Source of the DNA: Gammaproteobacteria bacterium | GTDB lineage: Bacteria; Pseudomonadota; Gammaproteobacteria; Eutrophobiales; Eutrophobiaceae | DNA: 64,000 bases | Direction of reading: 5' to 3' | Assembly (NCBI GenBank): GCA_021773235.1 | Contig: JAJFKL010000043.1 | Coordinates: 14,072-78,071, forward strand | Shown here: piece by piece, positions 5,229 to 45,504 of the stretch | How positions within the stretch are numbered: position 1 is the first letter of the stretch | Layout: every line of letters begins with the position of its first letter | Made by a program: the position numbers and the translations under genes | Notes under the pieces: generated by a model | Databases searched by the model: none | Told to the model about the DNA's origin: nothing | What the model saw: only the letters and a program-made list of their open reading frames with translations

Positions 5229-5238
5229 ACGTTCTTGT

Positions 5239-5300
5239 CATTCCTGCGTAGGCAGGAATCCAGTCTTAATAATTACATTATTCTTTATTTTTAAATTGGT
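5239..5300 (+). terminator. putative rho-independent terminator of the nuo operon
   Basis: Inverted repeat attcctgc-GTAG-gcaggaat (8-bp stem) 11 nt after the nuoN stop, followed by a T-rich tract (ttctttattttt). Confidence 0.4.
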
Positions 5301-5879
5301 TTCGCCTACTACGGCGAGTCCGCTGCTCCTTCGCATCCATGCGATCGCAGCATAAGTACGTCCATGTACAAAACTTTTTATTGCTTGCCCAAGATATAAG
5401 TAATCAAAGACGACATACACGGATGTATTAGTGTCGCGAGAGGACAGGAGTCCGAAGCGATTAAGGGCACCCTAATGTCCTGTCCTGCGGATACCCTCAG
5501 CATTCTTCTATTTCAATGGCACGCGCATACGGACTCCTCGACTCTGTCTCCTGATTCGTTCTACCTCCTGCGTCCATGCAGTCGTGTCCTAATGCGCTCT
5601 CGCAACACACCCCTCAAGGGGGTACCGAGGTCCATGTTGCTCAACCATTGAAATACAAGAATGCCTCGGCAAGTCATAAGGGTATTGATTAAACCTACAC
5701 CATTTGAAGTATGTTAAGAGAGCGTAAAATTCATCCTTTTCGTTAAATTGAGTCAATACCAAATGATATTAACCACGTCTGCTTTTAGTGATGGGTTAAA
5801 ATGTTAATATTCAGCTACCGACCCAAAGCGGACATTATCGTTATAAAATAAAGTACATTTAAATTTTATATAGAATGCT

Positions 5880-6695
5880 TCATTCAGAACATTGACTAAC
5901 TTTATTGATAAGTTGCTTACTAATGCCATGTTCTTGATTGTGTTCTTGTAAGAATTTTGCTTCGATTGTATAAGCCAGTGCTTCCAGCTCGTTTTTACAT
6001 TCAGAATCATCATCAAGATTTTCTTGATACTGCAAATAATGTACTAACTCATGTAGTAGAATGCCTCGACCCACTTCAGTTTTCAAATCAACCGAATCAA
6101 GTAAGTAAATTGCTTCTTCATTAAAATTATATAGCCCGAGAATATTTAAATTCGATGCGTTAACACTAGCAGGAAGTTTTCCTCCAAATGCAACTTGGGC
6201 AATTATTTGTGGGTTAACAAAATTTAATTTCGGCAATTGTTCTATTTTATATTCGAATGATGAATGTTCATTAATCCAATCAAGCAACCCATGCATCAAT
6301 TGCTCAGAGGTAGAAAATATGCTTGTTTGTAAATCAATACGAGGATAAGTTTGTACTTGTTCTAAACTGTTATTTAATGTTACCTCATCTACAATACCAG
6401 TATTATCTGCGATAACATTTTGAGAGAGTATACTTGCAGTGAGTATCAATATTGTAATGACATTTGCAGAAGAGGGATCTTTAACGCGCTTTATTCCTTC
6501 TAAAAAATCAGCGCGTCTATCTTCCTTAATAATGTAATCGTTATTTTTAGCAAAATTAACTAAAGCTAGATAAGCTACAGGATGTTTGTATTCAAGGCCG
6601 CGTTCATAGATAAGAGATCGTTGTCCATTTAAAATACAGGGATGAACCATAAATCTTTTCTTAATCTCATCGATGCTGTTTTTTCTTTTTTTCAT
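5880..6695 (-). CDS. hypothetical protein with HExxH...E zinc-metallopeptidase-like motif
   Basis: 271-aa ORF. C-terminal HELVHYLQ...ELEALAY resembles a gluzincin HExxH + E arrangement. No other recognisable family. Confidence 0.45.
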   Translation of the reverse strand: MKKRKNSIDEIKKRFMVHPCILNGQRSLIYERGLEYKHPVAYLALVNFAKNNDYIIKEDRRADFLEGIKRVKDPSSANVITILILTASILSQNVIADNTGIVDEVTLNNSLEQVQTYPRIDLQTSIFSTSEQLMHGLLDWINEHSSFEYKIEQLPKLNFVNPQIIAQVAFGGKLPASVNASNLNILGLYNFNEEAIYLLDSVDLKTEVGRGILLHELVHYLQYQENLDDDSECKNELEALAYTIEAKFLQEHNQEHGISKQLINKVSQCSE

Positions 6696-6821
6696 ATATG
6701 TAGTAACAAATGAATATTTATATAGCAGGTTAATTAAATTGTCATCGATGAAATATGAGGAATATTTTTTAGATTAGCATTAGAGATTAAATACTGAACA
6801 GTAATTACCTATAATTTAATA

Positions 6822-7895
6822 CTAGTGAAGACCAAACTCTTTGCCGTTTAGCCTTCCATCCTCAACAAGCGTACATGCTGCTGAAAGCGATGGATGATGA
6901 TATTTGTTTGGTTCCTGTTTCATGATTTCAATGGCGTCTTTAAATGAAAGCGCTTGCCGGTATGGACGAACGCCCGCAATTGCTTCTAGAGAATCAGCAA
7001 CTGCAACAATCGAAACTTCGATTGGAATACTAGAGCCTATCAACCCATAAGGGTAACCCGAACCATCCTGATGTTCATGGTGTAACAATACTATATTTTT
7101 TATTTTTTCATCGAAGTCAACTTCACCAAGAATTTCATAGCCAACAACAGGGTGCCGCTTTATAAATTCCCATTCGAATGTTTCTAATGTAGAAGGTTTT
7201 GTTAAAATTTCGGTTGGTACAGAAATTTTTCCAATATCATGAATACTGGCACCGAGTTGAATCATATCTATAGACTCCTGATTCAAACCTAACAATTTGG
7301 CGATCTCAGTAGAGATTGCTGCAGTACGGCTCATATGCCCAACTGTATAGGGATCTCTTTTTTCAATAGTGGAAGTTAATGCAAATGCTGTTTTTTGTAA
7401 TGCTATAATAATATTATTATTTACATTAACTGTAGGAGTGTTGTCTATGAATTCTGCTAGTCGGTATGTGACATTATCAATATTGATAATTAACGGGGAT
7501 ACTGTCGTATATTTAGTATTAGATTCCTTAGTAAGCAAACGTAACTTGTAACGTCCTGGGTTATTTTCACGGATTCGCTTTAATACCATCTCCTGATCTT
7601 GTTTTAAAATTAAATTAGTTACACTTTTCTTATATAATTCATTCCGAGTATAACCGACCATATCTAAGAAAGATTCGTTAGCCGCAACAACTTTACCATC
7701 GACAGATACAACAAATGCTCCTATGACAAAGGGCAGACTATTAGCCATAGCTTCCACGCCACCCTGTCTAAAAACGCTCTCCATAAATATATTAAATACA
7801 TCTTTATACTTGCTATCAATAGATTTAAGTGATGAGCTCATTTGTGAATGTATATCCTTATAATTATTCAAGTCATGTATGTCAGGAGTGTGCAT
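6822..7895 (-). CDS. PAS-domain HD-GYP phosphodiesterase (c-di-GMP signalling)
   Basis: 357 aa. C-terminal HD-GYP signature (HDIGK...HHEHQDGSGYPYGL). N-terminal PAS-like region. Confidence 0.85.
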   Translation of the reverse strand: MHTPDIHDLNNYKDIHSQMSSSLKSIDSKYKDVFNIFMESVFRQGGVEAMANSLPFVIGAFVVSVDGKVVAANESFLDMVGYTRNELYKKSVTNLILKQDQEMVLKRIRENNPGRYKLRLLTKESNTKYTTVSPLIINIDNVTYRLAEFIDNTPTVNVNNNIIIALQKTAFALTSTIEKRDPYTVGHMSRTAAISTEIAKLLGLNQESIDMIQLGASIHDIGKISVPTEILTKPSTLETFEWEFIKRHPVVGYEILGEVDFDEKIKNIVLLHHEHQDGSGYPYGLIGSSIPIEVSIVAVADSLEAIAGVRPYRQALSFKDAIEIMKQEPNKYHHPSLSAACTLVEDGRLNGKEFGLH

Positions 7896-7914
7896 AGTGT
7901 TTCTAATATAAAGA

Positions 7915-8319
7915 CTAGTGTAGAAGATCTTTATTGTGAATTAATTTCAATATATCCAGTGTTGAAATTATACCGTTACATTCTTTTCCATTAATTTCTA
8001 TATCATTAACTAAAATATGATGAACATGATTATTTAACATTAGTGTAATGACATCATTGATACTTGCACCCTTAGAAACACTTAATAACTTATGACTACA
8101 TATTTCCCATGCATGGGTTGCTTTCGTATTTTTCTGTTCTTTTTCTGCGATTAAAATATTAGCTTCTGTTATTACGCCAAATATTTTCTTATCATCATCT
8201 ACCACTACTACGCAGGAATGGTTCAGCCAATCATTATTGTTTTTTATCTTTTCAATTGAGTCATTGAAGTCGGAGTATTTTATTGCGTTGGCTATATCAG
8301 AAGCGTAAATGTTATCCAT
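7915..8319 (-). CDS. CBS-domain protein
   Basis: 134 aa with two CBS-like repeats (VVVDDDKKIFGVITEANIL; HHILVNDIEINGKECNGIISTLDIL). Confidence 0.7.
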   Translation of the reverse strand: MDNIYASDIANAIKYSDFNDSIEKIKNNNDWLNHSCVVVVDDDKKIFGVITEANILIAEKEQKNTKATHAWEICSHKLLSVSKGASINDVITLMLNNHVHHILVNDIEINGKECNGIISTLDILKLIHNKDLLH

Positions 8320-8751
8320 GATATTTGTCCGTCCATGTGTAACTCAGATTTTACATTTTAGGTAATGTAAAAAAACATTGTTAAGTCCTTCAAAGTTCAA
8401 GGAATGACAGTTAACAACTACTGAATTTAAAAAATTCACAATTTGCTAGGATAAGTATAGTTCTTTATTGAAAATTAACAGAATTATTATTTAAAGTTCT
8501 GATATATAACAACTTATTATGCTACATAATTTTGATTATATTTAAGCTATAGAGCTCTATATTGCCTTTGCATCAACATGTAAAGTTGTCATAAGTGCGA
8601 TTAATGCTTTTGCAAAATGATACCCTTAGAGAATACATGAAATACCGCTTATGGCCGAATGCAGAGTTTTAATTTTAACGCTCCAAAGCGGAAGTTAAAT
8701 ATCTATTAATATGAAATGAAATAAATAGGGGTAGACCGCGATTTTCCTACG

Positions 8752-8970
8752 ATGCCAAAAATAATTCTAGAATCTGTGCTTACTTGCCCTGAATGTGATC
8801 ACTGTAAGTAGGAAACTATGCCTACTGATTCATGTTTGTATTTTTATGAGTGTGAATAGTGTCATTCGTTGCTTAAGCCACAAGCTGGGGGTTGTTGTGT
8901 GTTTTGTTCTTATGGGACTGTTAAATGCCCACCGATTCAAGAAGGGGGAAAGTCTTGTTGTAAATGGTAA
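8752..8970 (+). pseudogene. small Cys-rich GDCCVxC-type ORF interrupted by two in-frame TAG codons
   Basis: A single frame reads MPKIILESVLTCPECDHCK*ETMPTDSCLYFYECE*CHSLLKPQAGGCCVFCSYGTVKCPPIQEGGKSCCKW*. Both internal stops are TAG and there is no frameshift. Motifs CPxC, FYEC and GxCCVFCSYG recall the small Cys-rich GDCCVxC protein family. Confidence 0.4.
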
Positions 8971-9374
8971 TTAGTATTCAGCAAGAATAATGTTAATCGC
9001 TTCTTGCATGTGTTCTGTCCAGAGTGCTTCAAGTCCTGATGTGAATTCTGGGTCATGTTTCTTTACGGTTTCGCAAAGACTATCTAACCATAAATTATAA
9101 AGTTCTGGTTTTATATTGAGGTTATCTTCCTTGTGAGTCTTGGCCACCATTGCCAATGTATTTTGTGTTCTTTTGTCTTCCAATGGAAAACGTATCATGC
9201 TGGTGACGGTTGCCTTTAATAATTTCTTTTGTTTATAAAATCAGTATTGGCAAAGAGTGGTGGGATTTCATCTGAAATAGATAGAAAGAGATCATAAAAT
9301 GTATCGTAAAACCCATCTGTCTTTACACAGCGGTTGTAACTTTCTTTTACAATTTCGTATGTTTCTGTGCTCAT
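8971..9374 (-). pseudogene. single-domain globin-like gene, apparently frameshifted
   Basis: Minus-strand ATG at 9374 encodes MSTETYEIVKESYNRCVKTDGFYDTFYDLFLSISDEIPPLFANTDFINKRNY* (about 52 aa). A 75-aa ORF (8971..9198) in another frame continues ...KRTQNTLAMVAKTHKE...ALWTEHMQEAINIIL. Together they resemble a bacterial single-domain (Vitreoscilla-type) globin split by a frameshift near 9200-9230. Confidence 0.4.
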
Positions 9375-9422
9375 TATATGGTTATTGCGTATAGGGGAAG
9401 GGTGCGTTAAATAGTGATGTGA

Positions 9423-9839
9423 TCACTGATTACTGCGTGATCGAATGACTTCGGCCGGTATTCCTAATTGAAATATCAGATATTCTTTAAAGTCGGCTTC
9501 GTATGCTTGTTCATCAATACTTTCTTTCATACAAGTTAGCCATTGATCACGTTCATCTGTACCTATTGATAGATGTTGGTGTACAGAAGGGATGCTGATG
9601 GGGCCGTATTTTTCTTGATATCGTTTAGGGCCACCTAGCCAACCGCAGAGGAATCTTGCGAGTTTGTCGATTGATATTTCTATATCGTCGGGGTGCATAT
9701 TATAGATGGTGCTAAACCGAGGGTCGCTTCCCATACGGTCGTAAAAATTATCGACCAGTTTTCTTATGCCTTCTTCTCCTCCTGCTGCCTGAAAAGAGGT
9801 GTCTCCTGTGCCATAGCTCATATTATTTTCTTTACTCAT
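9423..9839 (-). CDS. glbO: group 2 truncated haemoglobin (trHbO)
   Basis: 138 aa with FYDRMGSDPRFSTIY...HQHLSIGTDERDQWLTCM characteristic of 2/2 haemoglobin group II. Confidence 0.8.
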   Translation of the reverse strand: MSKENNMSYGTGDTSFQAAGGEEGIRKLVDNFYDRMGSDPRFSTIYNMHPDDIEISIDKLARFLCGWLGGPKRYQEKYGPISIPSVHQHLSIGTDERDQWLTCMKESIDEQAYEADFKEYLIFQLGIPAEVIRSRSNQ

Positions 9840-9886
9840 TATTCAGTTCTTCACTTTTCCTAATTATTGTTGTTTATAAGCTAATG

Positions 9887-10687
9887 CTAGTTATTAGACT
9901 CTGTGCTTTGTTTTTCAGCAATAGCGGCTTCACTTGATGCCATCCAATAGCCAACCGCCATAAAGAGACTGCCACCGATAATATTTCCTATCGTGACCCA
10001 CAACAGGTTATAGAACATGCCTGCAAGGGAAATGGTGTCCGGGTGTTCAGATAACAGAGAGATACTTAGCAACGTCATATTAGCAACACTGTGTTCAAAT
10101 CCACTAGCTATAAAGGCAAGCAGACACCAAAAGATGGCGATACATTTTGCAACTTCATTTTTGAGTCTGGCTGCCATCCATAAGGCGAGACATACCAGCC
10201 AATTACATAGAACGGCTCTTGCAATAAGCTCAATCACTGGAGAATTCATTTTGTATTCGGCCACTTTATGTAGCAGGCCAATACCGCCGTGAAGTAATTC
10301 ACCACCGCCACCGGCAACAAACAATACGGCAAGCAACACAGAGCCAATAAGGTTTCCAATCCAAGCTGCAGTCCATACCTTGCTTAGATCTAGTAGGCTG
10401 GTCTGTTTCTTTAACCAACCGAGTACCATATACATGGTATGTCCGGTAAAGAGTTCGGAACCCGCAAATACTACTAATGTAAGGGCGATACCGAAGGTCG
10501 CTCCCATTATCAATTTTTGAAAAGCTGGTGGAACTTGTCCAGCGACACTGAATATCAAGATAATCCCTAGGCCAACATAGGCACCGGCCATCATTGCACC
10601 CACTAGAAAGGCCAATGGTGAATGTTTGAGTACTCTTGTCTTTTGAACTGCAACACCTGAAAAATAATCGATAGTTTCTGAATACAT
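9887..10687 (-). CDS. formate/nitrite transporter (FNT) family channel (NirC/FocA-like)
   Basis: 266 aa, 6 TM. FNT signatures (LALTLVVFAGSELFTGH; LCNWLVCLALW; FEHSVANM). Confidence 0.85.
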   Translation of the reverse strand: MYSETIDYFSGVAVQKTRVLKHSPLAFLVGAMMAGAYVGLGIILIFSVAGQVPPAFQKLIMGATFGIALTLVVFAGSELFTGHTMYMVLGWLKKQTSLLDLSKVWTAAWIGNLIGSVLLAVLFVAGGGGELLHGGIGLLHKVAEYKMNSPVIELIARAVLCNWLVCLALWMAARLKNEVAKCIAIFWCLLAFIASGFEHSVANMTLLSISLLSEHPDTISLAGMFYNLLWVTIGNIIGGSLFMAVGYWMASSEAAIAEKQSTESNN

Positions 10688-10791
10688 TAAATCTTCACCA
10701 TGGTTGTGATTTCAAAAATATGTTTTGACATATTAAAAGTTGCATATAAGATATAACAATAAATTATTCTTGGCAATATGGAGAACTGAAA

Positions 10792-11319
10792 ATGCAGGAA
10801 ATCGCTTGGACTATTACTTTGGTGTTGATGTTGGTCATTATCGCTACCTTTGTATTCGTTGTTCTAAACTCGGGGCAGGTAGCTGAATATGAACCTGTAA
10901 AGAAACGTTTTTATTCGGTACGTACTGGTTTGTTCTGGGTGCTTGCCGTTGGCTTTGTTGTCGTAATGTTAAGTTCATATCAAGGTATGCCATATGCTGC
11001 TCAGCATAGGTCTGAAAATCCTATTGGTACTCAGGTTATCGATGTTGAAGGTTTTCAGTGGTACTGGAAGTTAAGTAGTAATGAAGTAAAGGCAAACCAA
11101 CCAGTTGTTTTTAACGTCACCAGTGGTGATGCAAATCATGGTTTTGCAATCTATGACGAATCATTAACGTTGCTGGCACAAACACAAGCGATGCCGGGTT
11201 ATATCAATAAGCTTGAGTATGTATTCAAGGAGCCAGGTACTTATAAGATTCTTTGCTTAGAATATTGCGGTATGGCACACCATTCTATGGTGTCAGCTAT
11301 AGAAGTCGTAGCAGAATAA
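10792..11319 (+). CDS. haem-copper oxidase subunit II (CuA cupredoxin, single N-terminal TM; ba3-like)
   Basis: 175 aa with one TM helix then a cupredoxin domain. CuA ligand motif H...CLEYCGMAHHSM. Confidence 0.8.
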   Translation: MQEIAWTITLVLMLVIIATFVFVVLNSGQVAEYEPVKKRFYSVRTGLFWVLAVGFVVVMLSSYQGMPYAAQHRSENPIGTQVIDVEGFQWYWKLSSNEVKANQPVVFNVTSGDANHGFAIYDESLTLLAQTQAMPGYINKLEYVFKEPGTYKILCLEYCGMAHHSMVSAIEVVAE

Positions 11320-11334
11320 AATCAGGAGAATAAT

Positions 11335-12795
11335 ATGTCGTCATCAATTTCTGTAATTCATCCGAACTTAAGTGCAGGTGCTAGAAAGACGCTTTTAACT
11401 TATCTAGCAATCAGTGCCGTAGTATTTTTACTCATGATGGTATTTGGTGCGAGTATGCGCTATGAGCAAAGCGAGTGGCTAGGTATGGGGCCGCAGTATT
11501 TTTATCAGATCATGACCGCGCATGGTATCGGTATGATTGGTATAGTTGGCTTGGCTGCCAGTGCGGTAATGTGGTTTTTTCTGTCTCGTCACGTTCAGTT
11601 AAGTACGCCAATATTAGTTGCTAATCTGGTTTTCTTTTTGATTGGTGTTGTATTAATACTGGGTGCAATATTTATCGGTGGATTTGCAGCAGCCTGGACA
11701 TTTCTTTATCCGTTACCTGCGATGGGCAAAGGAGTATGGGGAAATCATGCCGCTGCCAGTTATTTAGTTGGCCTTTTGCTGATAGGCGTAGGCTTTCTAC
11801 TGCTCTATCTGGATACTGCACGCGGTATTATGAAGAAATATGGAAATCTCGGAAAAGCACTGGGGTGGCCACAATTGTTCTTTAATAGTCAGGATGAAGC
11901 ACCGCCATCGGCTGTTATTGCAAGTACCATGGTATTGATCGTCAATATTGCCGGTATAGCTGCAGGTGCAGTTGTGCTTGTACTAAGCTTGGTCAATCTT
12001 TATATGCCGTCATATGAACTGGATCCTTTATTAGTAAAGAATCTGATATATTTTTTCGGACATGTATTTATTAACGCTGCTATTTATCAGGCAGTCATCG
12101 CCGTGTATGAAATTTTACCGCTCTACACCAATCGGCCGTGGAAACCGACTAAGGTTTTTATATTGTCGTGGACCTTATCAACCTTGATGGTGATGTCGGT
12201 ATACCCTCATCATTTATTAATGGATTTCGCTATGCCTAAATGGGCACTCATCATGGGACAAATTATTTCTTATATGAGTGGTTTCCCGGTATTGGTTGTC
12301 ACGGCGATTGGTGCTTTGACCCTAATCTATCGTTCCGGGATTAAATGGGACGTGACATCACGTTTATTAATCTTATCTATGCTTGGTTGGGCTTGTGGTG
12401 TTATTCCGGCAATAGTTGATGGCACGATTAGCGTTAATAATGTTATGCATAATACCTTATGGGTACCGGGTCATTTTCATATCTATCTTTTATTAGGTTT
12501 ATTGCCGATGCTATTTGGATTTATGTATTACCTCGTTCAGAGTAATGGTAATAAAGTCGGTGCTGTCGATGATGTTGCATTTTGGTTTTATCTAGTAGGT
12601 GGGATGGGTTTTGTCACCATGTTTTTACTGAGCGGTAAAGAAAGTATTCCACGTCGCTGGGCGGCGCATTTAAGTGAGTGGGTGCCTTATGATCGAATTG
12701 CATCTGTTTTTGCAACGTTAGTTGTTATTGGTGCACTAGTTTTTGCCTATCGCTTTTTGACTCGACTAAGCCGGATAAATATCGCTACATCGTGA
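11335..12795 (+). CDS. haem-copper oxidase subunit I, B-family-like
   Basis: 486 aa, 12 TM. All six canonical His ligands are present (IMTAHG; FFGHVF; YPHHLL; VPGHFHIY). Short, with no subunit III gene, like ba3-type enzymes. In a gapless motif comparison from memory, the position of the cross-linked Tyr (H+4) is Asn (GHVFIN). Confidence 0.85.
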   Translation: MSSSISVIHPNLSAGARKTLLTYLAISAVVFLLMMVFGASMRYEQSEWLGMGPQYFYQIMTAHGIGMIGIVGLAASAVMWFFLSRHVQLSTPILVANLVFFLIGVVLILGAIFIGGFAAAWTFLYPLPAMGKGVWGNHAAASYLVGLLLIGVGFLLLYLDTARGIMKKYGNLGKALGWPQLFFNSQDEAPPSAVIASTMVLIVNIAGIAAGAVVLVLSLVNLYMPSYELDPLLVKNLIYFFGHVFINAAIYQAVIAVYEILPLYTNRPWKPTKVFILSWTLSTLMVMSVYPHHLLMDFAMPKWALIMGQIISYMSGFPVLVVTAIGALTLIYRSGIKWDVTSRLLILSMLGWACGVIPAIVDGTISVNNVMHNTLWVPGHFHIYLLLGLLPMLFGFMYYLVQSNGNKVGAVDDVAFWFYLVGGMGFVTMFLLSGKESIPRRWAAHLSEWVPYDRIASVFATLVVIGALVFAYRFLTRLSRINIATS

Positions 12796-13415
12796 ATCGA
12801 TACAGCCTTATTAGCACTACACTAGTTTTAATAATCTCTGCTGCCGTCTGGTGGCAGGGAACCAGTGGCTTTAAGGCTTTTACTAGCGAGGCGGCAAGAA
12901 GGATTGATGTTTTAGAATACCCGAGAAAGCTATCAGGACTAGATTTTGAGAATCAGACCTTTGAAAATATTAATTTTTCAGATTATAAAGGCAAGGTAGT
13001 TCTACTAGATTTCATCTATACCAGTTGTCCCGATATATGCTATGCCCTAGGTTTTTCTTTTAAATCAATCAAGGCAGAACTTGAAGAAGCAGGACTGCAA
13101 GAACAAATACAGATAGTTAATATTACTTTTAATCTTGAACAAGATACACCGGAAAGATTAAGCGCATATGTGCAACGTTATACGTCCGACCATGATATGT
13201 GGCACGGTCTTCGATTAAAAGATCCCGGTCAGTTAAAACAACTTTTGTCAGACTTTGGCGTTGTTGTCATTCCTAATGAACATGGTGGCTTTGACCATAA
13301 TGCAGCAATTCATATACTGGATAAAGAAGGTCGTCTGGTGGGTATTCACGATTATCAGTCTCAACAACAGATCGTTGCCCAGATACGTGAGCAAATTAGT
13401 GCAACTGTGTTATGA
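12792..13415 (+). CDS. SCO1/SenC family copper chaperone
   Basis: 207 aa. CxxxC motif (SCPDICYALG) and conserved His (DHNAAIHILD). GTG start overlaps the coxA-like stop (GTGA). Confidence 0.75.
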   Translation: MNRYSLISTTLVLIISAAVWWQGTSGFKAFTSEAARRIDVLEYPRKLSGLDFENQTFENINFSDYKGKVVLLDFIYTSCPDICYALGFSFKSIKAELEEAGLQEQIQIVNITFNLEQDTPERLSAYVQRYTSDHDMWHGLRLKDPGQLKQLLSDFGVVVIPNEHGGFDHNAAIHILDKEGRLVGIHDYQSQQQIVAQIREQISATVL

Positions 13416-14011
13416 GCCGCTCTATCTTGTTTTTCGTGTTGTTTTTATACCTGTTAAGTTATTCAATCATTGGTCAATGGTTTGAAGTCTCTATGGTAAG
13501 GCATGTATTAATTCAGATACCCTGTCTTGTTCTGGCGGGATACTTGTTTGGCCGTAAATCCCTTATTAATAATCGGTTTCTTATTTTAATAAACGATAAA
13601 GGCCTTGCCGGTATATTGATGTGTATTTTTATCGGTGGCTATTGGATGTTGCCACGTGCACTGGATGCGGCATTGGCAGGATCAAATATGGCATTGGTTA
13701 AATATATTTCATTACCATTTTTTGTAGGAATACCACTGGCAATTAGTTGGCAAAGAATTCACCCCATTGCCAGAGCAGTAATCAAGATTGAATTCCTGAC
13801 GATGTTGTTTCGTTTAGGTTGGCTCTATCTGGTTTCTCCAAATAGGCTGTGTAATTTTTACCAATTAAATGAACAAATAATTCTAGGTAAGTGTTTTCTT
13901 ATTATTGCTACATCGCTTTCGTTGTACTGGATTTTGCAATTGTTTGCAGAGGATTATCGAGAACAGGAAACGCTGAAAAAAAATAATCTATATGATCAGG
14001 CCAGTAGTTGA
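13412..14011 (+). CDS. polytopic membrane protein, possible cytochrome oxidase assembly factor (CtaG/Caa3-type?)
   Basis: 199 aa, about 6 TM. ATGA overlap with the upstream sco. Assignment is by context only. Confidence 0.35.
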   Translation: MSRSILFFVLFLYLLSYSIIGQWFEVSMVRHVLIQIPCLVLAGYLFGRKSLINNRFLILINDKGLAGILMCIFIGGYWMLPRALDAALAGSNMALVKYISLPFFVGIPLAISWQRIHPIARAVIKIEFLTMLFRLGWLYLVSPNRLCNFYQLNEQIILGKCFLIIATSLSLYWILQLFAEDYREQETLKKNNLYDQASS

Positions 14012-14415
14012 TTTAATTTAATTTTATTAGTGATGATGTCGTCCAGAGAATATCCATCAAGGACATTTAGAAAAGCCTCGGTTGCCTCATTTAGTACCGA
14101 CTTAAGGCTGCATGCAGGGACGAAAGGGCACGCAGGTTCTGAACAATTTACTACATCCAGTGTCTGTTCTGTATTACGTATTACTTCGCCAACGCTGAGT
14201 GAGTCGGGTTCGTATGCCAACTCAAGACCACCACCACGGCCGCGTTTGGAAATAACATAGCCCAGTTTTACCAGATGGTTGACCACCTTGATTAGATGGT
14301 TGCGGGAAATATTAAATGATTCGGCAATATCGGAAATATTGCCTAGTTTTTCGGGTCTTAATGCTAGATACATTAAGACTCGCAGAGAATAATCTGAATA
14401 GCGTGTTAGATGCAT
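13996..14415 (-). CDS. nsrR: Rrf2-family transcriptional regulator, NsrR-like
   Basis: 139 aa. N-terminal wHTH (MHLTRYSDYSLRVLMYLA). Three Cys with Cx4Cx5C spacing (CSEPACPFVPAC), the NsrR pattern as opposed to the IscR Cx5Cx5C pattern. Confidence 0.75.
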   Translation of the reverse strand: MHLTRYSDYSLRVLMYLALRPEKLGNISDIAESFNISRNHLIKVVNHLVKLGYVISKRGRGGGLELAYEPDSLSVGEVIRNTEQTLDVVNCSEPACPFVPACSLKSVLNEATEAFLNVLDGYSLDDIITNKIKLNQLLA

Positions 14416-14493
14416 AGTTATATTTTAGTCTATTAGACTAAATAAAGCATATTAAATGCAACATTAATGTGAGAGGTAAAATCTACACATAGA

Positions 14494-15374: not shown

Positions 15375-15863
15375 TTAATGATGGTGATGTGAGTGATCTT
15401 CACTGCTATGGTCATGACTAGTTCGGCGTTCTACTTTTGCTTCTATGGTTTGATTGTGTCCATCAGAAAATGAAAAGTTGAGTGTTGCAGTATCGCCGGA
15501 GCGTAACGGCTTATCTGGATCAAATAACATCAGATGCAAATCGCCAGGAGATAACGTAAGAGTATTCTTTGCAGGTATTTCTAATGATTCTTGTTTTTCC
15601 ATAGAAACCATATCGCCATTTAATACGCTACGGTGGATTTCAACCTTAGAAAAGTTTGGGCTAGAAACGGATATTAGTGTTATTGGTTTATCTGAGGCAT
15701 TGTGAATATTTGCATATCCTGCAAGGACAGATAGCGTTGGAGGTGCCTCACTAATCCATGCATCAGAAAAACTAACTGCCACATTTTCATTGGTAAATGC
15801 AGAGCTGGAAAAAAGTATTTGAAAAATAAATGTAATCAGTAGAAATAAATTAACTTTGTTCAT
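15375..15863 (-). CDS. periplasmic copper chaperone PCu(A)C (DUF461)
   Basis: 162 aa with signal peptide. H(M)x10M...HxM motif (EIHRSVLNGDMVSM...DLHLMLF). His-rich tail HDHSSEDHSHHHH. Confidence 0.6.
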   Translation of the reverse strand: MNKVNLFLLITFIFQILFSSSAFTNENVAVSFSDAWISEAPPTLSVLAGYANIHNASDKPITLISVSSPNFSKVEIHRSVLNGDMVSMEKQESLEIPAKNTLTLSPGDLHLMLFDPDKPLRSGDTATLNFSFSDGHNQTIEAKVERRTSHDHSSEDHSHHHH

Positions 15864-16503
15864 TTATGAAGTTTTTTATTGTAGTGAACTGTTGGATGAT
15901 TTTGTTTTTCTCGTGAGGTGGAGATAGTTTGCCAACCATTCGACCTAAAGGGTCGATTAGAAATATTGAAGCTGAATGATCCACCAGATAGTCTTCAGCT
16001 TGATTCTCGTTATTCAAATAATAAGCAACGCCGATTTGGCCTGTGAGGCTAGTTATCATTTCATTAGTACCACCGAGACCAATAAAATCGGGATTGAAAT
16101 AACTGACATACTGGGACAGTATTTCTGGTGTATCGCGTTCCGGATCGACTGATGCAAATATAAGCTGTAGATCATTATTATCGCCGACAAGCTCTTTATA
16201 GGAGTCGGCCATCACAGACATTGTCACTGGACAGACATCCGGGCAATGGCTGTAACCAAAAAAAATGAAAGACCATTTACCCTTTATCTGGTTTAAACCA
16301 AAACCATTCCCATCTTGATCAAGAACAGAAAACTCATTTATTTGTTTTGGGTTTGGCCAAAACAAGCCCTCTATATTGGAAACAGCTTGCTGAGACTGTT
16401 GTGATTGTTTTACTGAAATATAGAATCCTGCACTGGTCGCTAACATGGCGAGAATGGCCATTGCCGGGATTAAAAATTTGCTATTGCTGAGTTTATTTAA
16501 CAT
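15850..16503 (-). CDS. SCO1/SenC family copper chaperone (second paralog)
   Basis: 217 aa. FGYSHCPDVCP CxxxC motif and DHSASIFLIDP. Confidence 0.8.
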   Translation of the reverse strand: MLNKLSNSKFLIPAMAILAMLATSAGFYISVKQSQQSQQAVSNIEGLFWPNPKQINEFSVLDQDGNGFGLNQIKGKWSFIFFGYSHCPDVCPVTMSVMADSYKELVGDNNDLQLIFASVDPERDTPEILSQYVSYFNPDFIGLGGTNEMITSLTGQIGVAYYLNNENQAEDYLVDHSASIFLIDPLGRMVGKLSPPHEKNKIIQQFTTIKNFINEQS

Positions 16504-18644: not shown

Positions 18645-19631
18645 CTATTTGTAGTTCTCTGCATTGAACCATTTTATAGCATCTTCAAGACCTTCAATTC
18701 CGGGTCTTGATTGATAGTCTAATTTATCTTTTGCCTTATTACTGGAAAAAAACATAATTTTTTTAGACATTTTGACACTCTCTACAGTGGCTCTAGGTTC
18801 ATTATGAGTAATGCTGGCAATACGTTCCATTAGCCAGGCAATAGGCAAAACTAAATTATGGGGTAAGCTGATAGAAGGCGGCTTCATTCCTTGATTGATA
18901 CAAATATATTTCAATATCTGTGCTAACGACATATTGTCGCCACCAAGAATATAACGTTCACCAATGGTTCCTTTTTCCAATGCAAGTAAATGTCCATTCG
19001 CAACATCATCAACATGCACAATATTTAAACCCGTTTCGACATAGGCCGGCATGCGATTACGAATTGTATCAAGGACGATTCTCCCTGTAGGTGTAGGTTT
19101 GATATCGCGTGGCCCGACTGGCGTTGAAGGATTAACAATAACAACTGGGCTGGCCATATCTTTAACTAGTTTATGTACTTCTTGCTCAGCCAGGTATTTT
19201 GAACGCTTATAATGGCCAATCATATCTTCAAGTGTTACCGGCGTAGTCTCATCAGAAGGAGTGCCATCTTTATTAATGCCCAAGGTTGCGACACTACTGG
19301 TATAGACAATTTTATCAACACGGGCTTTAGTAGCAGCGATAATTAAATCGCGTGTCCCGTCTACATTTGTGGCATACATAGGAGCTGGATCAGGCAGCCA
19401 TAAGCGGTAGTCTGCAGCAATATGAAACAAAGTATCACATCCTGTGACAGCACTTTGTAAAGAATTAGAATCTCGTAGATCACCTTCAATAACTTCCAGG
19501 TCAATGCCATCAAAGTTACGTCTATCCGAACCTGGCCTGACCAATGCACGTACTTCGTGTCCGTTTTTAATGAGTAGTCGTAAGACGGAAGATCCTACAA
19601 ATCCATTCGCGCCAGTTATTAATGTTTTCAT
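18645..19631 (-). CDS. hpnA: hopanoid-associated NAD-dependent sugar epimerase (HpnA-like)
   Basis: 328 aa. Rossmann GxxGxxG (ITGANGFVGSSV) and YxxxK (YKRSKY). Typical HpnA size. Sits in the hopanoid cluster. Confidence 0.65.
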   Translation of the reverse strand: MKTLITGANGFVGSSVLRLLIKNGHEVRALVRPGSDRRNFDGIDLEVIEGDLRDSNSLQSAVTGCDTLFHIAADYRLWLPDPAPMYATNVDGTRDLIIAATKARVDKIVYTSSVATLGINKDGTPSDETTPVTLEDMIGHYKRSKYLAEQEVHKLVKDMASPVVIVNPSTPVGPRDIKPTPTGRIVLDTIRNRMPAYVETGLNIVHVDDVANGHLLALEKGTIGERYILGGDNMSLAQILKYICINQGMKPPSISLPHNLVLPIAWLMERIASITHNEPRATVESVKMSKKIMFFSSNKAKDKLDYQSRPGIEGLEDAIKWFNAENYK

Positions 19632-19649
19632 ATAGAACAGTTATCGATT

Positions 19650-22280
19650 TCAATCACGGTTTAACAATCTAGGACTCATTGAATTTAGCCATATTAATAG
19701 TGCAGGTAGTACTAGTAATGTAGAGATCATCATTGAGGCTAGCCCTAATGATAATAGTAATCCCATGCTTGCAGTACCTTGATGCGACGAAAAGGCCAAG
19801 TTCCCGATGCTACAGATAGTTGTCAATGAACTAACAATAACGCCACGAGAAGAACTAGTCATAAAAATATTTCTTTTAGTTTGCTGTTCCTGACGAAACC
19901 GGTCGGCAATATGAATGCCACTGTCGACACCAATACCTAGTAGCAAAGGTAGGCCAATAATGTTTGCAAAATTGAGTGGGATGTTAAATAACAGCATAAA
20001 GCCAAAGGTAAACGTGCCACCAATTAAAACAGATAGTAATATGATTAATGCATCTATTTTAATTTTCATTAACAAAATTAATAATATTGATATAGCAATA
20101 AATGCATAAGTAAATGCTGATTTGAACGCGGTTATAACAGCATCACCTGCTTCAATACTAATTACCGGGGAACCGATAACATTGTTATTAAATGCTTGTA
20201 GTTGTTTTACAAATCTTTTCATTGCAGCATTATTATTAAGGTTCTCAACAGGTAAAACTTGTAATTTGTAATGATTATCACTGACCCAACGATCATGGAT
20301 TTCAGCAGGGATATTGTTTGAACCTACTTCCTCGGCATTGAGGGCATCAGCTAAAGATCGCATCCTGCCAGGGAAACTATTCAACAATTGTTGTTCCACC
20401 AATTTAATTTCTTCGTTATTTTTAGACGTATTTAATTTTAGTAATAAATTATGCAGGTTGTTTTTTAGAGACAACAGCTCTTCATTTGCCGTATCTGCTG
20501 ACATGGACTCAAGCTTTTTGATTAATTTTTTTATTGTATCAAGTCGTTCGTCATTATTAATTCCAGAGATTGTGCCAGATGATGTGAGCGTTCCTAATAA
20601 TAAATTCATGTCATCAATAATAAATAATTTATCTTCCTGCTCTTCAGGTATAAAGCTATTTAGAGAAACGACATCATCTACTAATGACAATGATGTAACA
20701 TCATTTTTAGTTGATTGGATCTCAGCAGAATTTTTGTTAAGTAAAATACCACTCCATGGCGATGTTTTACTGTCTTTTAATAAATCACGATAGGTCTGTA
20801 CAGATTCATTATCAGGATCTTGAAGATTTAATGTGTTTGTATCGAAACTTATTTTATTATATTGAGAGCTCAGGCCAAGAATAATTATTAATGTGAGTAG
20901 TAGTATTTTTTTAGTATGTTTATAAGGAATGTTAATTATTATTTCTAATACAGGGTTGATGTGCTTATTCTGGGTGTCTAGCCTTGGTTTTGAATGAATA
21001 AAAGTTAAAAGTGCAGGTAATAATGTAAAAGTAAATATTAAACTGATAAACATGCCACTACCGGCAATCCAGCCTAATTCAGCCACGCCCAGATAATCAG
21101 TTGGGATAAAAGAATAAAAACCAATTGCCGTTGTTATCGCACAAAGGATTAATGACTTAAAAATATGGGTTATTGCCATTTGCAATGCATGACTACTATC
21201 AGCTATCGAAAGCTTCTCTTCTCGAAAACGCAATAGTAAGTGGATTGCAAAATCAATCCCCAGACCGATATACAGAACGGCGAATGCGACTGAGATAAGA
21301 TTTAACTCACCAATTGTTGCAGTTGCAAAAGCAGTAGTAGCGATTAAGCCAAATAGTAATGTAGTCAAACATGCAGAGACTAGCGATAGTGAGCCCAGTC
21401 CTATGGATAGAATAATCGCAACCAGGATCAAGGAGATTAAAATAGCTTGAATATTCGCTTCAGAGACACTCTTTAATTCTTCATAAGAAAGGACAGTGCC
21501 GCCTGTCAACCGGACTTGAATCGAAATATTATTAGCTAATTTTATTGACTCTATAGTTGTTCGGACATGTTCTATTATATCTTCGTCAGGTAATAAAGAA
21601 TTACTGTTATCTTTAACTTGCAAGACAATGAATTCACGATAAGTATCTTCAATCTCATCGTCAGGATTCATTAATCGTTGCCAGGATACTTGATGGCTTT
21701 CATCTTCGAGTGCGTGATTAATTTCAAGTAACAAAGGCTTAATGTTTATATCTTCGCCATCTTGTTTTGCCTGAATTGCATCGTTCAACATATTAAACAA
21801 GCCGCGTAGATTCTGGTCTTCTATCAAGGTCCCCAGGAAAGGCTGGATCGTTGCTAATCGATCAGACAGGTCTTGCAATTCATCAAGCTCTAGAAACAGA
21901 AAAGCGGACTGACGAAAGTAGGGCAAGATTGCGGGGTAATAGATATCGTTCAAGAACGTCGAATCATTTTTAAACTCGGAATACAATAGCTCTGCTGTGT
22001 CACGTGCCTGATCAGGCGTCTTTGCTTCTACAACAACAAGGATATTATCGTTAAATTGTGGAAATAATCTTTCGTACTCAATATCAAGTTGTCGCCAATG
22101 CAGATCCTTTGACAGCATGTCAGTGGTACTGGTACTCATATCAAGATTATCTTTGATATAAAATACGGCGGCGATGGTGAGCGCAACAATGCCAATGATT
22201 ATTGGAACCCGAAATTTCTCAATGAATTGCAACCAGCAAAGTATCATACGTTCGGATGCCGATGTATGGGTTTGATTCAT
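19650..22280 (-). CDS. hpnN: hopanoid biosynthesis-associated RND/MMPL transporter HpnN
   Basis: 876 aa. Two 6-TM bundles separated by large periplasmic loops, MMPL-type. Adjacent to shc and hpnG. Confidence 0.75.
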   Translation of the reverse strand: MNQTHTSASERMILCWLQFIEKFRVPIIIGIVALTIAAVFYIKDNLDMSTSTTDMLSKDLHWRQLDIEYERLFPQFNDNILVVVEAKTPDQARDTAELLYSEFKNDSTFLNDIYYPAILPYFRQSAFLFLELDELQDLSDRLATIQPFLGTLIEDQNLRGLFNMLNDAIQAKQDGEDINIKPLLLEINHALEDESHQVSWQRLMNPDDEIEDTYREFIVLQVKDNSNSLLPDEDIIEHVRTTIESIKLANNISIQVRLTGGTVLSYEELKSVSEANIQAILISLILVAIILSIGLGSLSLVSACLTTLLFGLIATTAFATATIGELNLISVAFAVLYIGLGIDFAIHLLLRFREEKLSIADSSHALQMAITHIFKSLILCAITTAIGFYSFIPTDYLGVAELGWIAGSGMFISLIFTFTLLPALLTFIHSKPRLDTQNKHINPVLEIIINIPYKHTKKILLLTLIIILGLSSQYNKISFDTNTLNLQDPDNESVQTYRDLLKDSKTSPWSGILLNKNSAEIQSTKNDVTSLSLVDDVVSLNSFIPEEQEDKLFIIDDMNLLLGTLTSSGTISGINNDERLDTIKKLIKKLESMSADTANEELLSLKNNLHNLLLKLNTSKNNEEIKLVEQQLLNSFPGRMRSLADALNAEEVGSNNIPAEIHDRWVSDNHYKLQVLPVENLNNNAAMKRFVKQLQAFNNNVIGSPVISIEAGDAVITAFKSAFTYAFIAISILLILLMKIKIDALIILLSVLIGGTFTFGFMLLFNIPLNFANIIGLPLLLGIGVDSGIHIADRFRQEQQTKRNIFMTSSSRGVIVSSLTTICSIGNLAFSSHQGTASMGLLLSLGLASMMISTLLVLPALLIWLNSMSPRLLNRD

Positions 22281-22329
22281 TATTTGTTATCCAGTTTTGA
22301 CAAGCTAAACGGAGCTTGTCTGATAATCA

Positions 22330-23076
22330 CTAGACTCTAAACACGTATTCTTTTTCATCATCGCGTTCTATATCAGGTGGGTAACTGAGACGTTTGTCAT
22401 CATAATACTGTCTTCGATGATCGCCTTCAGCTGCAGCATTATATGTGACGTAAAGTACTCTTCGTTGCTCATTCGTCATATTTGGTTCTGAACGGTGTGG
22501 TGCAAATGAATCAAAAAAGACAGCATCGCCCGGATTGGTTGTTACTGATACATAATCCAGAGCATCTTCTTCAAGTGGTTTCCATGCTTCGCCTATTAAA
22601 CCCTTATCGTGATATCCGCTTGCCATTTGTAGACAACCATTTTCAATGGTAGAAGCATCAACACTGACTAAGGCAGTAATATGTAATTTGGAATAACGAT
22701 CCCAACCGGCTTGTACATCTTGATGCGCTTTAAAACCATCACCGCCAGGCATCTTGAAATTGATTTTGTCTTTAAACAAGATTGCTTCATCATTAAATAG
22801 TTGTGATGTAATTTGTTGTATCTCACCACGCATGAAAAGGTCGCTGAAGCCCTGGTGAAAGGGTTCAATATCTTCCATTCGTGACAATATGCGATCTCCT
22901 GAGGCCAGTTTACTTTTTTCGAAATACATCATGTATTTACCGGGGACTTCAGGATAATTTGTAACTTCTTCAGTCCATTCAATAATTTCCTGCATTCGCT
23001 CAGCGTTATATAAATCTCGTATAACTAGAAATCCTGTGCTGTTGAATTCTTCGATTTGTTCGTTGCTTATTTTCAT
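22330..23076 (-). CDS. phytanoyl-CoA dioxygenase (PhyH) family Fe(II)/2-oxoglutarate oxygenase
   Basis: 248 aa. HxD...H facial triad (KAHQDVQ ... FAPHRSEPN). Confidence 0.65.
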   Translation of the reverse strand: MKISNEQIEEFNSTGFLVIRDLYNAERMQEIIEWTEEVTNYPEVPGKYMMYFEKSKLASGDRILSRMEDIEPFHQGFSDLFMRGEIQQITSQLFNDEAILFKDKINFKMPGGDGFKAHQDVQAGWDRYSKLHITALVSVDASTIENGCLQMASGYHDKGLIGEAWKPLEEDALDYVSVTTNPGDAVFFDSFAPHRSEPNMTNEQRRVLYVTYNAAAEGDHRRQYYDDKRLSYPPDIERDDEKEYVFRV

Positions 23077-23150
23077 GATAGATGGTGTTTTAAATTAATA
23101 ATGTCGCTCTTATAAACCAGTTAGTAATCTATGACAAGTGACAGTAACAA

Positions 23151-23870
23151 TTAACTGTCAGAATAGAGAAAATGACTGTCTTTTAGTAGTTGTGCAATTT
23201 CTGATAAAGATGCCAGTCCTTTTTTATAACCGCTTGCCAATGAAGATATCTCTCGAATTTGTTTAGGTTTCAAAATACAGGACAACATAAAATTAAAAAT
23301 TCTGGGCTGCCCCAGATTGTTGGTGTGTTTCAAAATCGCCTCCGGTATGGCTGTGTCAGCATCATCAGAAATTGTTCGTATCACAAGTAGGTCAAGGTTG
23401 TTTTCCGTTGCCGTTTCTGCAATCGCTGCGCTTTCCATATCCACGGCCAAGGCCCCTGTGTTTTGTGATAGATGTTGCTTGTCCGCTATGGACGCACAAA
23501 TTTCTTTACATGATGCAATATCACCACTAAAGATATTAGGTTCTGACGGAAGAAAATGTTCCGATACTCGGCTTAGCCAATCCTCGGATACCGAATAACG
23601 ATTCTCCCCATTAATAATGGAACTAGCCAGAATAACATCGCCTGACTTTAAAGAATTATCAATTGCTCCCGCGACTCCCCAACTTATCAAGGCATCTACT
23701 TTTAAAGCGACTAGTTTTTTTGCAGCAAAGAGAGCGGATTCATGACCAATACCAGACAGACATAAAAAAACATCTTGCTGTATTTCGATAGGCAGACCAG
23801 CTTTTAATTTTTTACTAGAAAGACACTTTGCCTCTGCAGGTAAAGCTGCAATGATGCCAATTCTGCTCAA
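23151..23870 (-). CDS. hpnG: hopanoid-associated phosphorylase/nucleosidase HpnG (PNP/MTAN fold)
   Basis: 239 aa. N-terminus RIGIIAALPAEA like MTA/SAH nucleosidases. The apparent start is TTG at 23870. Confidence 0.65.
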   Translation of the reverse strand: MSRIGIIAALPAEAKCLSSKKLKAGLPIEIQQDVFLCLSGIGHESALFAAKKLVALKVDALISWGVAGAIDNSLKSGDVILASSIINGENRYSVSEDWLSRVSEHFLPSEPNIFSGDIASCKEICASIADKQHLSQNTGALAVDMESAAIAETATENNLDLLVIRTISDDADTAIPEAILKHTNNLGQPRIFNFMLSCILKPKQIREISSLASGYKKGLASLSEIAQLLKDSHFLYSDS

Positions 23871-23887
23871 GACTTAATGTAGGGCGT

Positions 23888-24009
23888 GTCTAAAAATAGT
23901 GGTTTTTTCGTGAGTGCAAGGGTGCTTCGCGCGGAGAACCGGAGTGTATTAACTACACATGAGGATTCGAGCACGAGACAGCCACAGCAATCGTGGAAAA
24001 AATGCATTT
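23888..24009. repeat. intra-operon repeat element, copy A (between shc and hpnG)
   Basis: About 75% identical to 45505..45656. Shared blocks: gtgagtgcaagg, cgcgc-gaaccgga, tacatgagga, caatcg-ggaaaaa. Internal hairpin gtgta-ttaac-tacac here versus atgtat-aaata-atacat in copy B (compensatory change). Confidence 0.6.
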
Positions 24010-25977: not shown

Positions 25978-26086
25978 AGCGATGTTAAATTAGGGCACAT
26001 AGTGACAATCATTAAAAATTATTAATGTTTGTCGCTACTCTCTTTCCCCTCATTCTTATCAGTGTTTGTCATGCAACGCGCTGATA

Positions 26087-29119: not shown

Positions 29120-29124
29120 TAGTA

Positions 29125-40141: not shown

Positions 40142-40245
40142 GAAGATGAAACTCCTTTAAGATTACCGTTTTATATTATTATTATTACTTTATTCTATGC
40201 TTTCTCAGCTGAATATAAAGCATTATTAGCAATGTATTACCAAAT

Positions 40246-43486: not shown

Positions 43487-43490
43487 CTGA

Positions 43491-45009: not shown

Positions 45010-45033
45010 AAGGTATTACACATCGCCGGATGT

Positions 45034-45456: not shown

Positions 45457-45504
45457 AAAATTAATATTAACCATGTGACAATTTATATTTAAGTTAAGGA
45501 TGCT

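Follow-up and report, generated by a model that had tools for sequence, protein, structure and literature searches.

The stretch of DNA analysed here (the window) comprises 64,000 nucleotides (nt) of contig JAJFKL010000043.1 from a gammaproteobacterial genome assembly, GCA_021773235.1, and carries at 11335-12795 a gene for the catalytic subunit I of a heme-copper oxidoreductase (HCO) in which the tyrosine of the active-site His-Tyr cross-link is exchanged for asparagine. Taking sequence, gene order and comparative data together, we propose that this gene encodes the catalytic subunit of a nitric oxide (NO) reductase (NOR) of the sNOR type, an offshoot of the B family of HCOs, and that the enzyme most likely reduces NO. 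Subunit I has every testable feature that defines sNOR and belongs to that known family. The Tyr-to-Asn exchange is the published signature of sNOR; its observation in this genome is correct yet not new.

The active site of subunit I

The gene and the part of it that matters most to the argument are as follows.

11335-12795, forward strand: subunit I (NorY/CoxA2-like), the catalytic HCO subunit, sNOR type; 486 amino acids (aa); Pfam COX1 8e-50
12061-12075, forward strand: codons of H243-V-F-I-N247, the first CuB/FeB-ligand His followed by Asn at H+4 (H233 and Y237 in the ba3 oxidase)

A preliminary description, made from the sequence alone, had read this open reading frame (ORF) as an HCO subunit I that carries Asn at the position of the cross-link Tyr, four residues after a ligand His, and that keeps all six metal-ligand His. 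Each of these readings holds. The predicted protein has 12 transmembrane (TM) helices (AlphaFold2 model with 12 long helices, pLDDT 88, pTM 0.90), and a Foldseek search with the model returned oxidase subunit I structures only, with TM-scores of ~0.8 to subunit I of the bo3, aa3 and ba3 enzymes. The motif FFGHVFINAAIYQAVIAVYEILP covers aa 240-262 (nt 12052-12120), H243 being encoded at nt 12061-12063 and N247 at nt 12073-12075. All six ligand His are kept: H63 and H382 for the low-spin heme, H380 for the high-spin heme, and H243, H292 and H293 for the CuB/FeB metal.

We equate N247 with ba3 Y237 because one gapless register, GHVFIN on GHPIVY, came back from three alignments: pairwise HMMER (phmmer against the Thermus ba3 chains), a 118-sequence family profile searched against the PDB, and hhalign against a Tyr-bearing B-family profile headed by ba3 (probability 100%, 466 columns). 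The ba3 fragment was rebuilt from the HMMER output, and the canonical numbering H233/Y237/H282/H283/H384/H386 was reproduced. Neither pairwise HMMER nor the profile nor hhalign placed a Tyr at the cross-link position, and the nearby Y251 falls on ba3 L241. The preliminary description had argued for the same register from an equal spacing between GH and ILP in the two proteins. Its count of 18 was wrong, as the distance is 16 residues (18 only if G and H are themselves counted), but the spacing is indeed equal in both, so that the gapless argument stands.

In 118/118 close homologs (60-93% identity) neither N247 nor any of the six His varies, and N247 is kept in 32/32 full-length representatives of the clade, down to ~30% identity. 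The exchange is therefore neither a one-off substitution nor a sequencing error. A protein identical to subunit I is also present on an independent assembly (L079). No solved structure of an Asn-type NOR was found in the PDB, either by sequence (query and profile) or by fold (Foldseek).

Membership of the sNOR family

A HMMER search over 1.84 billion representative sequences recovered 561 proteins at E<=0.001. The full-length representatives, down to ~30% identity, all read GH-x3-N and keep the six His, barring a few truncated or degenerate sequences, and Tyr-type oxidases with GHPVVY appear only under ~170 bits. A neighbor-joining tree of 42 sequences splits exactly into eight Tyr-type sequences, ba3 among them, and the Asn/Ser-type sequences. 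Because the split is exact, a grouping of subunit I within the bona fide ba3 O2 reductases fails. The tie to named sNOR members runs through Geobacillus thermodenitrificans and not directly through the NorY of Nitrosomonas, Nitrosococcus or Nitrococcus. The Geobacillus locus (L075) is 56% identical and fully syntenic, and its cluster, GTNG_1517-1520, is the published "qCuANOR type II". A scan of genome contigs with exact query peptides gave no nitrifier among its matches.

The sNOR family was first proposed in 2007-2008 and is said to be due to Hemp and Gennis (2008). Its place within the heme-copper oxidoreductases has since been surveyed by Murali et al. 2024 (PMC11214002), according to whom sNOR shares the active site of bNOR, and Bacillus azotoformans is said to hold qNOR, sNOR and bNOR together. 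In the Bacillus CuA-NORs, both type I and type II, the Tyr-to-Asn exchange had been described as the signature of the active site (PMC3475470). The suggestion in the preliminary description that loss of the Tyr marks a NO-reductase offshoot of the B family is thus supported, the evidence placing the protein in sNOR. Its remark that the loss is atypical needs qualification: the substitution is real, but it is the already published hallmark of a family with hundreds of known members.

Two sNOR-like sequences from outside the window (P0132 and P0161) carry Ser where the query has Asn247, and several of their heme and copper His are gone (e.g. Q63, L292/Y293, Q382). They appear, as far as their residues tell, to be degenerate and probably non-catalytic relatives of sNOR.

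A conserved four-gene operon

Subunit I is the second of four tightly packed genes in the order subunit II, subunit I, SenC/Sco, orf1.

10725-10752, forward strand: sigma-70-type promoter TTGACA-16-TAAGAT of the sNOR operon (promoter scan, 10/12 match)
10792-11319, forward strand: subunit II (NorS/CoxB2-like), 175 aa; Pfam COX2 4e-09, TIGR02866 CoxB 5e-21
12792-13415, forward strand: copper chaperone of the SenC/SCO1 family, 207 aa; Pfam SCO1-SenC 5e-17; C79-x3-C83 and H169
13412-14011, forward strand: orf1, a membrane protein of 199 aa with five hydrophobic segments; no Pfam family

Subunit II has two hydrophobic segments at its N terminus (7-25 and 42-60), read as TM helices, and its cupredoxin domain carries the whole CuA motif, H116-x34-C155-x-E157-x-C159-x3-H163-x2-M166, the ligands of which reach at least 90% conservation across 76 orthologs. 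In SenC, too, the Cys and His are conserved to at least 90% among the orthologs. The senC gene overlaps the stop codon of subunit I by 4 nt, and the start of orf1 overlaps the stop of senC by another 4 nt. Conserved residues of the orf1 product are W78xxPRxxD85, K97, W113, W137xY139 and C147N148xY150; it has no Pfam or NCBIfam match even at E<=10. It corresponds to the "orf1" of norSY-senC-orf1 (PMC4940428) and to the protein of 4-5 TM helices (TMH) of type II (PMC3475470), and we regard it as a candidate third subunit or assembly factor.

Across the 78 named genomes with a relative of subunit I, subunit II was found beside it in 75/78, SenC in 67/78 and orf1 in 77/78, and the operon is conserved over four phyla or classes. 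In these sNOR loci orf1 is more constant than SenC. Two published operons have the same design. One is norSY-senC-orf1 of the ammonia oxidisers, represented by Nitrosomonas europaea NE0683-86 (PMC4940428). The other is qCuANOR type II of Bacillus azotoformans and Geobacillus thermodenitrificans, which has the Tyr-to-Asn exchange and a shorter subunit I of 12 TMH (PMC3475470), together with a two-TMH CuA subunit II, a SenC paralog and a protein of 4-5 TMH (Heylen & Keltjens, PMC3475470).

The promoter lies in the 104-bp intergenic region from which nirC and the gene for subunit II diverge. It contains a conserved sequence, AAGTTGCATAT, that matches one NsrR half-site at 9/11 positions, and four genomes, at 83-100% protein identity, share the promoter block.

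Genes for NO and nitrite around the operon

The genes that flank the operon on either side relate to nitrite and NO.

9423-9839, reverse strand: truncated hemoglobin (Bac_globin), 138 aa, on the strand of nirC and downstream of it; Pfam PF01152 1.5e-25
9887-10687, reverse strand: NirC-type nitrite channel (FNT family), 266 aa, divergent from the sNOR operon; Pfam Form_Nir_trans 4e-68
13996-14415, reverse strand: NsrR-like regulator of the Rrf2 family, 139 aa; Pfam Rrf2 2e-34; Cys91/Cys96/Cys102

The channel scores 297.9 bits against NF008595, over the cutoff of 293. A close NirC ortholog (57-70% identity) adjoins the operon in 14 gammaproteobacterial loci and in all three of the closest relatives, and the truncated hemoglobin gene recurs in two other loci (L080 and L003). 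The NsrR-like gene converges on the operon, sharing 16 nt with the end of orf1. For its product the best NCBIfam match is the NsrR equivalog NF008240. The Cys residues, spaced C-x4-C-x5-C as read from the sequence, stand at 91, 96 and 102, which we take to be the same numbering as in Escherichia coli NsrR.

The three closest relatives (L080, L081 and L082, at 93, 86 and 83% identity) keep the order nirC / II-I-senC-orf1 / Rrf2, the convergent orientation of the Rrf2 gene included. Since this arrangement is kept despite unrelated flanks, the six genes would seem to move as a module. A function related to NO is favored by this recurrent association with NO and nitrite genes.

Just outside the conserved module lie further genes for copper handling.

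15375-15863, reverse strand: PCu(A)C copper chaperone with a His-rich tail ending in HDHSSEDHSHHHH; Pfam PCuAC 6e-31
15850-16503, reverse strand: second SCO1/SenC protein; Pfam SCO1-SenC 1e-41

This pair stands 1.4 kb downstream of the module, past a phosphatidylserine decarboxylase gene, and gives the locus two Sco paralogs within 4 kb. It is present in L080 and absent from L081 and L082. Its products are possibly general helpers of CuA assembly.

On the other side, ~4.2 kb (5229-9422) are missing from the 93%-identical L080, where nuoN directly precedes the truncated hemoglobin gene. This segment holds a 271-aa ORF, a CBS-pair protein (7915-8319), a PAS and HD-GYP protein (6822-7895) with weak similarity to an NO-related "NosR-family" cyclic di-GMP phosphodiesterase, and a 75-aa C-terminal globin fragment (8971-9198). 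The fragment is probably a pseudogene, because the frame upstream of it is broken by stops.

NsrR operators in the relatives

NsrR operators were sought with an 11-1-11 consensus (matches counted out of 22) and with a position weight matrix (PWM). Among the 78 loci, 15 are adjacent to nsrR, and in 9/15 an NsrR box of at least 15/22 lies within ~170 bp upstream of subunit II; the best of these boxes reach 19/22, at -38 and -47. Such a box is present in only 4/59 loci without nsrR (Fisher p = 2.3e-5) and in 1/296 control windows from coding regions. Relatives from two proteobacterial classes have such operators ahead of the operon. Together with the NsrR, NirC and truncated hemoglobin neighbors, they favor NO reduction over a role as a high-affinity O2 reductase. 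In the genome studied here, NsrR may by extension control the operon as well.

The window itself holds one candidate operator beside the regulator gene.

14442-14464, strand not assigned: candidate NsrR operator ATAAAGCATATTAAATGCAACAT, 27-49 bp upstream of the nsrR start codon

With 16/22 matches it is joint-best in the 64-kb window, where three sites reach 16, and taken alone it is not above chance (~0.55 expected per window). Upstream of nsrR, L080 and L082 have matches of 15/22, the second-best and joint-best of their own loci, and L081 has none. The site may possibly serve autoregulation of nsrR.

A 7-4-7 palindrome at 10716-10733, AATATGTtttgACATATT, was considered as an operator and rejected, its spacer being 5 bp too short and the sequence not being conserved in L080-L082. 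This palindrome overlaps the -35 element of the sNOR promoter, and its arms match the NsrR half-site cores of relatives (e.g. AATATGTATTTTATATACATATT in L042).

In an alphaproteobacterial relative the partners recur in another arrangement. The locus on the megaplasmid of Ruegeria pomeroyi DSS-3 (L083, NC_006569.1, norSY at ~195.7-198.8 kb; 53% identity) is arranged as a divergent Rrf2 gene followed by II-I-SCO-orf1-FNT-cytochrome c, with a perfect 23-bp palindrome, ATTAGGTATTTAAAATACCTAAT, in the divergent intergenic region and a near copy of this Rrf2-type palindrome upstream of a gene for a group III truncated hemoglobin near the cluster (positions 877, 5882-10820 and 6434 of the locus). A true cbb3 oxidase operon, ccoNOQP, adjoins the sNOR cluster.

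The putative proton path and the proposed function

The hhalign mapping of ba3 residues onto the query points to a modified path for protons.

12085-12111, forward strand: codons of Y251 to E259 on helix VI, a putative modified K-type proton pathway
ba3 Y237 to query N247: cross-link Tyr exchanged
ba3 L241 to query Y251: Tyr at H+8
ba3 Y244 to query V254
ba3 Y248 to query Y258: K-channel Tyr retained
ba3 T249 to query E259: Glu, >90% conserved in close homologs
ba3 G280 to query Y290
ba3 S309 to query V319: Ser lost
ba3 T312 to query T323

Y251 is invariant in the 118 close homologs. More broadly, the residue at H+8 is Tyr in 28/32 Asn-type representatives and in 0/8 of the Tyr type, which have F or L there; the S309 column holds Ser in 8/8 Tyr-type and in 5/32 Asn-type representatives. 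Y290, two residues ahead of H292 at the kink of helix VII, is Tyr in 23 of the 32 Asn-type sequences. In the alignment register neither Y251 nor Y290 stands i/i+4 to a ligand His on one helix. On helix VI (residues 231-265 in the AlphaFold2 model) two helical turns separate Y251 from H243, a geometry that would exclude a His-Tyr cross-link of the i/i+4 kind. More plausibly, Y251 would line a path for protons between E259/Y258 and N247. According to Murali et al., no Tyr has migrated in families that lack the cross-link Tyr, and they describe sNOR as having a conserved Glu and as having lost the equivalent of ba3 S309 (PMC11214002). The query fits this published channel pattern, with V319 in place of S309 and with E259 as the conserved Glu, the latter matched by description.

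In the mechanism we propose, electrons would pass from a periplasmic donor (cytochrome c or a cupredoxin) to the CuA center of subunit II, then to the low-spin heme (H63/H382) and on to a binuclear site that would consist of the high-spin heme (H380) and a metal held by H243, H292 and H293. This metal is Fe in characterised NORs and Cu in oxidases, and could be either one here. The His-Tyr cofactor, the source of the fourth electron for O2 cleavage, would be exchanged for Asn247; with the cofactor so replaced, the site would be suited to 2NO + 2e- + 2H+ -> N2O + H2O and not to O2 reduction. Protons would probably come from the cytoplasm by a remodelled K-type path (E259, Y258, Y251, T323 and N247), and because of this the reaction may be electrogenic. 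The operon appears to sit in a portable module, alongside NirC, a truncated hemoglobin and an NsrR-like, presumably [Fe-S]-based NO sensor, a composition that suggests a role in detoxifying or respiring NO when conditions are nitrosative or oxygen is low.

Published work on related enzymes is consistent with such a function. The bNOR enzyme, whose active site is the same, has been proven to be an electrogenic NO reductase (PMC11214002), and Nitrococcus mobilis, where sNOR is the sole NOR that can be recognised, makes N2O, which is indirect evidence (Füssel et al., PMC5665590).

Alternative readings of the locus

Several observations weigh against NO reduction. No sNOR has been purified or assayed (PMC11214002), and the case for NO reduction is drawn from the absence of the Tyr and from the analogy with bNOR. 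In Nitrosomonas europaea, norSY-senC goes up 2.7- to 10.8-fold at O2 limitation, and Sedlacek et al. 2020 argue from the oxidase side, for a high-affinity O2 reductase (PMC6967387). The three metal-ligand His of the query are of the CuB type, without the fourth, Glu ligand of cNOR and qNOR. Our comparison with the ammonia oxidisers runs through their published operon and not directly through the sequence of Nitrosomonas NorY. As for the neighborhood, the 64-kb window holds no nir, nos, amo or hao genes; the Rrf2 protein stays under the NsrR equivalog cutoff (138 vs 182 bits); its gene is convergent here and co-directional in most relatives; and upstream of the operon in the window there is no convincing full NsrR operator or palindrome, the best PWM score being 6.2 bits, where training sites in the relatives score 14.7-27.2 bits and shuffled sequences have a mean maximum of 12.7.

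Among the alternatives, the one that fares best would make the enzyme a high-affinity, NO-tolerant terminal O2 reductase that works without the His-Tyr cross-link, perhaps with Tyr251 as a non-cross-linked donor of electrons and protons; we consider it unlikely. In its favor, norSY-senC is strongly induced under O2 limitation in N. europaea, from which an oxidase role has been argued (PMC6967387), the three-His site of CuB type and the CuA subunit are retained, an analog of the K-type channel is present, and the Tyr at H+8 co-varies strictly with the Asn at H+4 (the 28/32 vs 0/8 above). However, none of the O2-reducing HCOs characterised can do without the cross-linked Tyr, and the prediction for the six families without it is that they do not reduce O2 (PMC11214002). 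On helix geometry, a Tyr two helical turns from H243 could not form a cross-link of the known kind, and the enzyme that shares the active site, bNOR, reduces NO. The genomic partners are NsrR, NirC and a truncated hemoglobin, with NsrR operators in the relatives, and in Ruegeria the true cbb3 enzyme beside the cluster would render a second high-affinity oxidase redundant.

Quite unlikely, in our view, is that the enzyme catalyses another reaction (nitrite or N2O reduction, or NO dismutation) or serves mainly as a sensor or scavenger of NO and not as a respiratory NOR. The family is biochemically uncharacterised, a nitrite channel adjoins the operon, and other Tyr-less offshoots of the HCOs have been proposed as NO dismutases or N2O reductases (PMC11214002). 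Those clades, however, relate to qNOR and cNOR and not to the B family (PMC11214002), while the active site here is that of a demonstrated NOR and Nitrococcus produces N2O with sNOR only.

We see very little chance that the whole family consists of O2 or dual O2/NO reductases that do without the covalent cofactor, Y251 acting as a non-cross-linked redox and proton donor. If this were true, the induction of the genes by hypoxia in Nitrosomonas would be reconciled with the missing Tyr, and the rule that O2 reduction by HCOs requires the cross-link would be overturned.

Finally, the notion that the Asn is a lineage-specific loss of function or an error in an ordinary ba3-type oxidase, in a decaying or misassembled gene, has a negligible probability and is already refuted by conservation: degenerate relatives do exist (P0132 and P0161), but here the ORF is intact with overlapping, translationally coupled neighbors, N247 and the ligands are invariant in the 118 homologs and the 32 divergent representatives, an identical protein is found on the independent assembly, and the operon persists over four phyla or classes.

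Significance

Enzymes of the sNOR type are widespread, occurring in ammonia oxidisers, denitrifying Bacillota and many marine Proteobacteria, and they may contribute to N2O emission. Whether they function as NO reductases or as high-affinity oxidases is openly disputed. The locus described here and its relatives provide independent genomic evidence on the NO side of that dispute; in the papers searched, no report was found that links sNOR to NsrR, NirC and truncated hemoglobin. Public annotation names the sNOR subunit I proteins "cbb3-type cytochrome c oxidase subunit I", and as a consequence of annotation as a cbb3 oxidase, the potential for NO reduction would be systematically missed in marine genomes. 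In Ruegeria the RefSeq names are "cytochrome C oxidase subunit I" for subunit II and "cbb3-type cytochrome c oxidase subunit I" for subunit I. Ruegeria pomeroyi DSS-3 is a cultured, genetically tractable model bacterium and carries the same module.

The remainder of the window

Apart from the module and its surroundings, the 64-kb window is occupied by nuoLMN, hopanoid, PKS/PUFA-like (polyketide synthase/polyunsaturated fatty acid) and type II secretion genes. An Rfam scan of the window matched no rRNA or other RNA family.

18645-27145: hopanoid cluster with an HpnA-like epimerase, an MMPL/HpnN-like transporter, PhyH, a PNP-family protein, squalene-hopene cyclase and squalene synthase
27440-35907: PfaD-like enoyl reductase and a 2260-aa ORF (PUFA/PKS-like)
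38000-48613: type II secretion system
51421-62082: 3553-aa ORF, where the GC content is higher (44-49%)

The closest relatives of the squalene-hopene cyclase are marine metagenome sequences, some of them from TARA.

Comparison with known systems

Three of the proposed HCO-derived NOR families were set apart by description. In gNOR a metal His is replaced by Asp and CuA is absent; this family is ruled out, as the three metal His and CuA are intact here. The nNOR family, with a cNOR-like Glu site and Met as heme ligand, is ruled out by the metal and low-spin heme His. The eNOR family, which has a different active-site substitution, is separated via the published statement that the Asn belongs to bNOR and sNOR (PMC11214002).

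The NorB-type enzymes cNOR and qNOR resemble the query in lacking the cross-link Tyr and probably in catalysing the same reaction, 2NO -> N2O. They differ in having FeB with a fourth, Glu ligand, conserved glutamates, and a cytochrome c subunit or fusion; they have no CuA and no cytoplasmic proton channel, and the NorB fold is related to the C family. We reject this identity on two grounds: no NorB chain was among the PDB sequence matches of the query (E<=0.01) or the profile (E<=0.001), and NorY is without the NorB glutamates (PMC6967387).

Thermus thermophilus ba3 (PDB 1EHK, 1XME) shares with the query the fold (TM-score ~0.73-0.8), the six His, a CuA subunit, the K-channel residues Y248 (Y258 here) and T312 (T323 here), and helices VI-VII that align without gaps. 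It has 13 TM helices where the query has 12, is only 18-19% identical and falls in a separate clade. The Asn at the Tyr position of GHPxVY and the separate clade in the neighbor-joining tree rule out that the query is a ba3-type O2 reductase.

Closer in its active site is bNOR (qCuANOR type I, Bacillus azotoformans), which likewise has GH-x3-N, three His, a CuA subunit II, a linked SenC and membrane protein, and a derivation from the B family. Its subunit I, however, has ~568 aa and 13 TMH, a 46-aa third peptide (CbaC) is present, subunit II has one TMH, the K channel is still ba3-like, and the family is confined to the Bacillales. With its 486 aa, 12 helices, two-TM subunit II and proteobacterial host, the query is no bNOR, and nothing requires a small ORF in the interval from the promoter to subunit II. 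Because Murali et al. hold that bNOR and sNOR are not closely related (PMC11214002), their shared active site would be convergent.

The full likeness is to sNOR, that is to norSY-senC-orf1 and qCuANOR type II: the Tyr-to-Asn exchange at H+4, the three metal His and the two sets of heme His are the same, as are, in sNOR and qCuANOR type II, the 12 TMH, the length of ~480-495 aa, the two-TMH CuA subunit II, the gene order II-I-SenC-orf1, the loss of the ba3 S309 equivalent and the conserved Glu in the K-channel region. In contrast to the known sNORs, the present one belongs to an uncultured, low-GC (~40%) marine host without nitrifier or denitrifier genes in the 64-kb window, and its operon makes up a portable module together with NirC and an NsrR-like gene that runs convergent to it.

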